From contig OX597840.1 of assembly GCA_951406725.2 (NCBI GenBank), positions 248,001 through 312,000 of the forward strand: a DNA stretch of 64,000 bases, in the 5' to 3' direction. Shown here piece by piece: positions 8,499-40,109 of this stretch. The first letter of the stretch is position 1, and every line of letters starts with the position of its first letter. This DNA comes from Octopus vulgaris (lineage: Eukaryota). The notes below the pieces were generated by a model that worked only from the letters and a program-made list of their open reading frames with translations, had not been told where the DNA came from and did no database searches. A program made the position numbers and the translations under genes.

Positions 8499-8557
8499 TT
8501 TAACAAAACTGTCCGACGAACGGGAACGTGAAACTCCGAGTAACAGCTTTTGTTAAA
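8499..8557 (+). ncRNA. Minimal type-I hammerhead motif (U4C core)
   Basis: tttaacaaaactgt-CCGACGA-ACG(ggaa)CGT-GAAA-CTC(c)GA-GTA-acagcttttgttaaa: 14-bp stem I with one bulge; palindromic stem III. Confidence 0.75.
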
Positions 8558-8578
8558 TTTCTGCTGCTTTTAAATAAA

Positions 8579-8639
<61 letters not shown>

Positions 8640-22643: not shown

Positions 22644-23079
22644 CATATGACGAGAATCTTTCAAAGCATTCTTTTGCCACAATGGGAAACATTAGGAAAT
22701 ATAGCATACATACAGATATACAGACAATTATTACATTTTAACCTTTATCAAATTTCTTGCTGCTTTTACAAATTAATGCAATGAATACTAATTTTCTAAC
22801 GGAAAATATTTATTACCTTCAAATATAATTGAATAAAAACAAATTTCACATTTGTATATTTCCGATAAATATATGTTATTATTTTGCTAAAGTTTACCAA
22901 CATAAGTGTGCTCCATTAAAAACCTATATCTACAAAAATTTCATGAAAAAAAAATGTTTCTCTGAAAGTTGCTAGAGATTAATCCAGCAGTTCTTTTTGT
23001 TAGTTCTTCTCACATTTCTTTTTTACATTTTCTTCCACTCTCTCTTATACGGCAGGTATATATACATACATACATACAT

Positions 23080-23116
<37 letters not shown>

Positions 23117-23117
23117 G

Positions 23118-23170
<53 letters not shown>

Positions 23171-23171
<1 letters not shown>

Positions 23172-23322
23172 AAATAAGCAACAAGAATAACTTCGGTAAT
23201 TTGGTACGATCGTTTCACGCTACATCATTTTAAAACTGTTGTAATACTTACAATATTTAATAAAATGATGTAGCATGAAACGATCGTACCAAATTACCGA
23301 AGTTATTGTTGTTGCTTATTTT
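23171..23322. repeat. 62-bp near-perfect inverted repeat carrying the HHR 3' half GAAACGATCGTA
   Basis: 23171-23232 versus 23261-23322, two mismatches. Confidence 0.85.
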
Positions 23323-23466
23323 TTATTATAATCACCCCATGGATTTATATGGATAACACCATACAAAATTCTGGTGCATCTAACTTAAGTACCATATCCA
23401 TTTGAATCTAAATTTTGCTGAACTTATATATATATATATGCACTTTATTAATAAAGCTGCAAATAT

Positions 23467-23523
23467 ATCACAAAAACTGTTACTCAGAGTTTCACGTTTC
23501 CGTTCGACGGACAGTTCTGTGAT
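23467..23523 (-). ncRNA. Second copy of the 8499 hammerhead family (core CCGTCGA, A6U)
   Basis: Reverse complement: cacagaactgt-CCGTCGA-ACG(gaaa)CGT-GAAA-CTC(t)GA-GTA-acagtttttgtg; bracketed by inverted ctttattaataaagctgca. Confidence 0.7.
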
Positions 23524-23656
23524 GATGATGATGTCTCTGCAGCTTTATTAATAAAGCATATTACTCTACCTCCGGTATTCGAGTACTATTTTTTCCACCT
23601 TGTTTCATATTTGTGACCTTACTCTGGTATATATAGATACATACATGCATAACGAC

Positions 23657-23744
<88 letters not shown>

Positions 23745-23953
23745 AAAACTATACAGGATAAGAAAAATTATAGAATTTTTTTCTACCAGTGGACTAGAAT
23801 ATACATTATTCATATGAAATTAGTGTACATTTAAACACATAAGAGGTGCCTTGACAGGACACTTAGCATGCTAGAAAGACCAGTCAAAATCCAAACCACG
23901 GTTAGGGGTAATTTCGAAGGGAATGAAATAAAAACATTTACCATATTTTGCTA

Positions 23954-24020
23954 CCGGACCATGGTTTCGAACTTTAATTAGCAAATAAAATAATTTGTTA
24001 GGCGAAGTTCTCATCAGCGG
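23954..24020 (-). ncRNA. Canonical type-I hammerhead ribozyme motif
   Basis: Reverse complement: ccg-CTGATGA-GAACTT...AAGTTC-GAAAC-CATG-GTC-cgg; all core nucleotides canonical; predicted cut between 23957 and 23956. Confidence 0.85.
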
Positions 24021-24347
24021 ATACGCCAAAGATTAACATAAAATTATGAGGCAGAATAGCGCATGTCTCATCTTTATATATTATAATTTTTGCTGCCGAA
24101 GGCATTTCGCCTGGTGCGCTAACGTTTCTGCCAGCTCGCCGCCTAAGACCTCTTCTCTTCTGAGGATCGAATTCTGGAGGTGGTGCATTTCTGTACACCC
24201 GCAAATGCTATTCTCGCATTCAGTCCATTGCCCTGCTTGCCACTACAACGTAGCACAACAAGCAAGCTTGCTAGTGCCATTACAATTGGAATTATAAGAA
24301 CAGAAGATAGAACGATCAAATATTTATTTTCTAGTAAACGTTAGAGT

Positions 24348-24864
24348 GTGGAGGCGCGTGGCTTAGTGGTTAGGGTGTCAACATGAGGATCGTAAGATTG
24401 TGGTTTCGATTCCTGGACCGGGCGACGGGTTGTGTTCTTGAGCAAAACACTTCATTTCACGTTGCTCCAGTCCTCTCAGCTGGCAAAAATGAGTAACGCT
24501 GCGATGGACTGGCGTCCCGTCCAGCTGGGGAACACATACGACATTGAAACCGGGAAACCGGGCCCATGAGCCTGGCTAGGCTTTAAAAGGGTGCATTTAT
24601 TTTAGTGGAGGCACGTGGCTTAGTGGTTAGGGTGTCAGCATCATGATCATAAGGTTGTGGTTTCGATTCCTGGACCGGGCCACGCGTTGTGTTCTTGAGC
24701 AAAGCACTTCATTCACGTTGCTCCAGTCCACTCAGCAGGCAAAAATGAGTAACGCTGCGATGGACTGGCGTCCCGTCCAGCTGGGGAACACATGCGCCAT
24801 TGAAACCGGGAAACCCGGCCCATGAGCCTGGCTAGGCTTTAAAAGGGTGCTGTTATTTTATTTT
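24348..24864 (+). mobile_element. Dimer of tRNA/CORE-like SINE family D
   Basis: Units start at 24348 and 24605 (gtggaggc..tggcttagtggttaggg..ggtttcgattcc); one TSD taaacgttagagt at 24335 and 24865. Confidence 0.9.
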
Positions 24865-25384
24865 TAAACGTTAGAGTACACACACACACACACGCACACA
24901 CACATACGCATGCAAAAACTTAAAAGCAAATATAATTCGTTTGAAAAATAACTCGTTCTTATCATTTTAGAATTACAAATTTTTTTTATTTAAAATAAAA
25001 CAAGTCGAGATTATGTACTGTTAGATATCTTATTTAGATTCATTTTCTCAAAAATGACAGATAGCCGGGAAAAAAATATTTTATAATATTAAAAAAAATT
25101 ACTTGTCCTTATCATTTTAAAATTACGATAAATTGTATTTTTAAAAAAAATTAGCAGATACTATATAATATTTTATGATATTTTGTTTTCTTAAAAATAT
25201 ATCTGTTTCTACGATAATTTCTTTTTAAATATGTTTTTTTTCAACTATTTGATGAAAACATACGAATGTAAAAACTCCGAAGTCGCTATCAATAATTTAA
25301 CACGTAAGGTCCACGTAAGGTCCACTTACGACAAACGATCACTCGGAGATGTGTAGAGTGATTCTTCAATAACGGAGTGTTTAC

Positions 25385-40024: not shown

Positions 40025-40109
40025 TCGGCTGATGAGTACGAGCCACCTATATTTACTGCAATTTTTGTAGCTTTATTAAAGATGTCCTCGTACGAAACAA
40101 TTGTACCGA
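40025..40109 (+). ncRNA. Canonical type-I hammerhead ribozyme motif
   Basis: tcgg-CTGATGA-GTACGAG...CTCGTAC-GAAAC-AATT-GTA-ccga; 7-bp stem II base; predicted cut after 40105; in a ~143-bp island between (TA)n tracts. Confidence 0.87.

Follow-up and report, generated by a model that had tools for sequence, protein, structure and literature searches.

Within a window of 64,000 nt of the Octopus vulgaris genome, three hammerhead-related elements lie side by side. They are very probably three unrelated insertions with (TA)n tracts between them, likely made on separate occasions by TA-targeting enzymes of Penelope-like elements (PLEs), and the locus that they form is likely inert. The elements, here called A, B and C, belong to known kinds, namely PLE hammerheads and animal retrozymes.

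Layout of the locus

An earlier, sequence-only reading of the window had noticed that all three elements are related to hammerheads and that the core of element C is fully canonical, in agreement with our analysis. The features of the locus, in window coordinates, are as follows.

23135..23170, (TA)n tract flanking element A at its short end
23167..23232, minus strand, inverted 5' arm of element A at its short end, with the 3' half of a hammerhead only
23226..23425, plus strand, main arm of element A, in which stem II, GAAAC-GAUC-GUA (23277-23288) and the tail remain
23425..23442, (TA)n tract that adjoins both A (long end) and B (short end)
23443..23520, minus strand, arm of element B with a minimal type I hammerhead (23514-23477)
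23521..23627, plus strand, opposite arm of element B, tail only, reaching the long end of the B family
23628..23742, TA-rich microsatellite separating the long ends of B and C
23743..24091, minus strand, element C, 5'-truncated, reaching the long 3' end of the C family
23950..24024, minus strand, type I hammerhead of element C, with the site GUC at 23957/23956

The host genome (2.8 Gb) is rich in microsatellites, and (TA)n bounds the 3' end of each of the three elements. A (TA)n target, 5' truncation and an inverted 5' arm are all present in families A, B and C. The motifs of the three elements are not chance occurrences, because each belongs to a large repeat family; reversed-pattern controls for the motif searches gave 0 matches. 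Rfam produced no hammerhead match at the gathering score in the window, nor at E<=10 in 22900-24300. Matches of the foldback of element A to miRNA families of Rfam lie below the gathering scores and were set aside, as they reflect the long hairpin.

The foldback itself is present as described before, although not at the 62 bp given then: its arms measure 66 nt (23167-23232 and 23261-23326) and are 95% complementary, with a folding z score of -20.6. The motif GAAACGATCGTA was rightly placed inside it, and occurs at 23277-23288 on the plus strand and at 23216-23205 on the minus strand.

Other hammerhead-like motifs are found elsewhere in the window. A full one at 40029-40105 (plus strand) has a 7-bp stem II base, a long insert and a 4-bp stem I, and passes the stem descriptor with longer stems than the motif of element C. 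Two short motifs of the form CUGAUGA...GAAA with a palindrome-like stem III, at 56654-56628 and 11912-11868 (both minus strand), failed this descriptor. The related motifs at 38956-38894 and 44341-44259 (both minus strand) have CUGAAGA, a U-U at the stem II base and GAAAC-GAUC, like family A; the latter is without the GUH end.

Elements A and B and the Hydra-type PLEs

Element A (23167-23425) appears to be the young 3' end of a Hydra-type PLE. Its main arm is 96-98% identical to its best siblings (40 of 2,196 candidates were scored), and all 25 family loci compared, 25/25, end at one site followed by TA. In long copies of the family, about 1.1 kb of upstream sequence leads to the end of an ORF, preceded by sequence of the C-terminal part of a reverse transcriptase (RT); the longest copy fetched is 5'-truncated within the RT. 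A CxCX5C linker, GIY-YIG and CxxC/CxH motifs were found upstream of A in four loci (L035, L047, L049 and L143), and the translations of L143, L145 and L049 have a C-terminal GIY-YIG with the CxCX5C linker and CxxC/CxH. The GIY-YIG domain upstream of family A is a Pfam match above the cut-off (E 1.6e-5). The same combination of linker, GIY-YIG and CxxC/CxH, together with insertion in (TA)n, is given for the Hydra clade in the available text of Craig et al. 2021 (PMC8557442). An assignment of the ORF to the Neptune type was dropped, because its motifs match those described for the Hydra clade.

The foldback is a 5' inversion of element A, and it removed the CUGAUGA half of the ribozyme. An inverted arm starting from the same internal site is seen in 6 of the 25 family loci, including element A (5 of the 24 siblings), and in 16/24 siblings CUGAUGA lies directly upstream of the point where element A starts; a CUGANGA 5' core half is absent from element A on both strands. 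The inverted arm is predicted to be paired in its foldback at P of about 1.0. In two of the 24 siblings (L037 and L047) the core reads CCGAUGA, a U4C change like the one usual in family B.

The sequence-only reading had correctly recognised a minus-strand copy of the 8499 family in the locus: element B (23443-23627) is a sister of the 8499 subfamily, 85% identical over 96 nt to 8503-8597 on the opposite strand. Absent from that reading was that the 8499-type element is a complete minimal hammerhead with a variant core. The hammerhead of element B (23514-23477, minus strand) has a long stem I, a 2-bp stem II, GAAA and a near-palindromic stem III, with a predicted cleavage site GUA at 23481/23480. 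The core of the family is CCGACGA, carrying U4C, and a pattern in which position 4 may be C or U had 1,613 matches in the genome, with 0 for the reversed control. Position 4 is C in 78 of the first 100 matches listed, counted by eye, and the U4 forms would fit CpG decay. In the copy at this locus the core reads CCGUCGA and departs from the conserved core by A6U at 23507; identity to siblings is 78-87%. Before the variant core was recognised, element B had been taken for a half-ribozyme, and the upstream search for CUGAWGA gave only three unrelated matches; this reading was then dropped. The 8499 copy at 8509-8546 (plus strand) has an intact CCGACGA core and is a better B-type candidate than the copy at 23514-23477.

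Of 15 long copies in the 8499 subfamily, two (L203 and L207) have upstream the end of an ORF with CxCX5C and a GIY-YIG-like region, recognised by motif. These motifs argue that the 8499 subfamily is a PLE end, and the element B copy itself presumably is one too. The available text of PMC3088659 reports low activity for hammerheads changed at A6, and for U4C an activity that is reduced in vitro, yet enough for a viroid in vivo.

Elements A and B resemble the Hydra-clade EN+ PLEs in that the hammerhead lies close to the 3' end, (TA)n is the target, and 5' truncation goes with an inverted arm and optional tail. The C-terminal GIY-YIG, with its CxCX5C linker and CxxC/CxH motifs, is a further point of likeness for A and may be one for B; family B differs in its U4C core. 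Inverted 5'-truncated arms and an optional tail are described as usual for PLEs in the same text (PMC8557442), whose supplement includes an octopus Hydra family, Hydra-1_Obim. A search of this supplement with exact probes of 11-12 bases from the motifs of the three elements found nothing, so A, B and C look like other families. Craig et al. was the only paper found in a search of the octopus and cephalopod literature for hammerheads, Penelope elements and retrozymes, and the supplements of other papers may list these families. For the minimal type I hammerheads of metazoan PLEs, weak cleavage, only as dimers, is reported by Cervera and De la Pena (2014, PMC4209133), and the dimer mechanism also appears in PMC6765202. 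The motifs described here share with them, as far as the text of PMC4209133 available to us goes, the short stem I, the palindromic stem III and the occurrence mostly as single dispersed motifs and opposite-strand pairs. Against the same text, B differs in its 2-bp stem II and U4C core, and C in its long two-part stem II and in having no extra base before the first G-C pair.

Element C as a piece of a retrozyme-like unit

Element C appears to derive by truncation from a retrozyme-like unit of 445 nt that has no ORF and repeats head to tail. The repeat has 2,053 candidates in the genome, and full-length matches among the 40 scored are 78-92% identical. The unit was defined in L116, the one locus with two hammerheads in tandem, as the 445 nt between the two cleavage sites, and it holds no ORF. 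The copy at our locus runs from about unit position 323 to the long site; it spans less than a unit, with a single ribozyme, and no second C copy is present in the 64,000-nt window. The main arms of 61 of 76 distinct family loci end at two sites (35 short, 26 long). Outward-facing inverted arms occur in 24 of the 76 loci, 15 of them pairing a short with a long end. In 33/76 loci the sequence runs through the long end into the next unit, a fraction that is inflated, since the loci were picked by similarity to queries of which one was the unit junction. Copies longer than one unit were found at 23/76 loci, the longest being 707 nt, and none of the 76 is an array longer than 1.6 units. Beyond the unit, no upstream sequence common to the family was found, nor was any PLE ORF attached to it, and no full-length autonomous partner was identified.

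An ORF-less head-to-tail unit with one type I hammerhead is the anatomy of a non-LTR retrozyme, and family C shares it, with PLE-like insertion ends added. In the available texts, animal non-LTR retrozymes likewise combine a single type I hammerhead, in an AT-rich unit that lacks an ORF, with head-to-tail continuity and a proposed PLE origin (Cervera and De la Pena 2020, PMC7229834; Li, Clavereau and Pollet 2026, bioRxiv 10.64898/2026.07.22.740005). As compared with the units of 220-390 nt described there for coral, mussel and axolotl, the C unit is longer; family C is also old, and known from DNA alone as dispersed pieces of at most 1.6 units, and the element C copy lacks the two ribozymes by which an active retrozyme is recognised.

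At our locus (24102-24144 and 24347-24914) very high-copy short repeats adjoin the 5' end of element C and are followed by tandem copies of a SINE-like, putatively tRNA-derived repeat. At L119 (686-1142, plus strand) the end of a PLE GIY-YIG ORF lies upstream of the C copy on the opposite strand, so that insertions are stacked there too.

The hammerhead of element C contains CUGANGA, GAAA and NUH, here as CUGAUGA (24017-24011), GAAA (23968-23965) and GUC ending at 23957, all on the minus strand. The sequence-only reading had described most of its parts accurately, including the 6-bp stem II base (24010-24005 with 23974-23969), the second AU hairpin above it (24000-23993 with 23986-23979), GAAAC-CAUG-GUC (23968-23957) and the predicted cleavage site at 23957/23956. 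Stem III (23965-23958) is palindromic. Stem I pairs 24020-24018 with 23956-23954 before mismatches begin, and the upper part of the two-part stem II has a private A-C mismatch at 23998. A strict 33-base pattern has two matches in the genome, element C among them, and a looser one that allows wobble pairs finds 43 intact cores, again including element C.

Covariation argues that the type I hammerhead is real at the level of family C. In an alignment of element C with 30 of the 43 intact-core places, six of the seven in-register pairs of stem I change on both sides, stem II shows a C-G / U-A switch (16/14) and the centre of the stem III palindrome a UA / AU switch (20/5). The search pattern itself selected for pairing in stems II and III and not in stem I; the stem I changes reflect a few subfamily events, and subfamily kinship inflates the counts throughout. 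The covariation score was reached by 0 of 500 shuffles, and slid controls pair in 20-40% as against 86%. One further candidate pair, 11-92, was discarded, being paired in only 1/31 aligned sequences.

The predicted folding of the present copy bears on the view that element C is an active ribozyme, possibly kept by the host, which cuts a minus-strand transcript through the locus. The canonical core, its rarity in the genome and a local stem II probability of 0.98 speak for this view. In the monomer, however, the active fold costs 9.5 kcal/mol over the minimum, with P(stem I) at 0.0, since the 5' strand of stem I and CUGA are engaged in a hairpin; this rival hairpin has P 0.61-0.65 in a 930-nt context. 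Among the siblings 12/30 retain every junction pair and pay less for the active fold, in four cases 2.4-2.8 kcal/mol. These figures, the private mismatch in stem II, the length of less than one unit and the absence from the window of a partner for dimer formation do not sustain the earlier ranking of element C as a top candidate for an active ribozyme. Moreover, with thousands of copies in decay, a few can be expected to have survived intact. A host gene is not apparent among the 107 ORFs of the window, which gave no Pfam match above the cut-off and one weak match below it, a search that could miss short exons. Assembled contigs of eight RNA runs cover the repeat families, with no listed piece spanning the locus, and are uninformative either way. 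We regard an active, possibly host-kept ribozyme as quite unlikely. The energies of stem III (+2.9 kcal/mol as a hairpin, -11.2 as an 8-bp homoduplex) would fit the dimer mechanism of metazoan type I hammerheads, in models that ignore tertiary contacts and co-transcriptional folding and treat the dimer by stem III duplex energies only. It is only a little less improbable that family C represents the pseudo-LTR of an autonomous PLE in partial tandem. One would then expect what is seen, namely TA targeting, two fixed ends and inverted arms like those of A and B, and no long arrays; yet upstream-extended C copies enter the unit's own 3' end, in one case with two hammerheads 445 nt apart, whereas none enters a PLE ORF, and the ORF end near the copy in L119 is on the opposite strand. 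The independent retrozyme-like unit remains our preferred reading.

Clustering and origin of the locus

The sequence-only reading also saw the locus as a hotspot. It is hardly a special one: the three families are unrelated, common in the genome, and all end in (TA)n. Forty arbitrary 10-kb stretches (400 kb) contained four A-like, three B-like and two C-like elements along with 557 TA tracts. The corresponding densities of 10, 7.5 and 5 per Mb are rough, resting on only 2-4 counts each, and by arithmetic from these rates about two triples of A, B and C within 1.4 kb are expected genome-wide by uniform chance; more are expected with common targeting or if other families are counted. Around 123 sibling loci, 10 neighbours from another of the three families were found versus about 5-6 expected, and three of the 10 lie within 40 bp. 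Clustering is thus modestly above background, a weak overall excess with a tendency to abut.

That C, B and the inverted arm of A are read on the same strand within 850 nt might suggest a single functional cassette of three minus-strand motifs that complete or regulate one another. This idea has almost nothing left to recommend it, given that the elements differ in family and age (sibling identities of 96-98%, 78-87% and 78-92% for A, B and C), that the A arm is locked in its foldback, and that none of the 123 sibling loci has both other families. Stem III cross-pairing among the three is also negligible, at -0.3 to -1.4 kcal/mol versus -7.9 to -11.2 for the self-pairs; since these stems do not cross-pair, the cluster cannot act as a unit by the stem III route.

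For the three separate insertions that we prefer, the following origin may be proposed. Elements A and B would be clipped 3' ends of Hydra-type PLEs, each with the usual inverted 5' arm; a link to a PLE ORF is seen for A and for the 8499 subfamily of B, and is presumed for the element B copy. The PLE endonuclease would cut in (TA)n, with priming at fixed internal sites. Family C likely borrows PLE enzymes for its copying, and the ends of its copies suggest a circular or head-to-tail RNA as template, on which reverse transcription may begin beside TA, at either of two fixed points. The hammerheads of the source elements may cut as homodimers via their palindromic stem III, as covariation and the literature suggest. 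TA left at the outer ends of each insertion could then be the target for the next, and A, being the youngest, would have been inserted last. In its present state the locus holds A without half of its core, B with A6U, and C with an intact core but with no partner copy, a weak stem I and a competing hairpin. Element C would probably cut only slowly, and in vitro only as a tandem dimer.

A wider picture can be offered tentatively, and as a whole it is doubtful. The TA tracts may be self-renewing landing pads that chain unrelated ribozyme elements to one another; family C may be a retrozyme of 445 nt whose stem II is branched and whose copying begins at two fixed points on a circular RNA; and family B, with over 1,600 copies, may be a PLE family that spread despite a non-canonical U4C core, which would make it an active natural U4C ribozyme in an animal retrotransposon.

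Overall, the locus itself matters little, as a pile-up of decayed insertions of known kinds, and the usable points are at the level of the families. Family C has natural compensatory variants in all three stems, and its better-folding siblings L084, L090, L093 and L108 suit a test of dimer cleavage. Family B, having spread widely with a U4C core, allows a test of the level of catalysis that a PLE needs.
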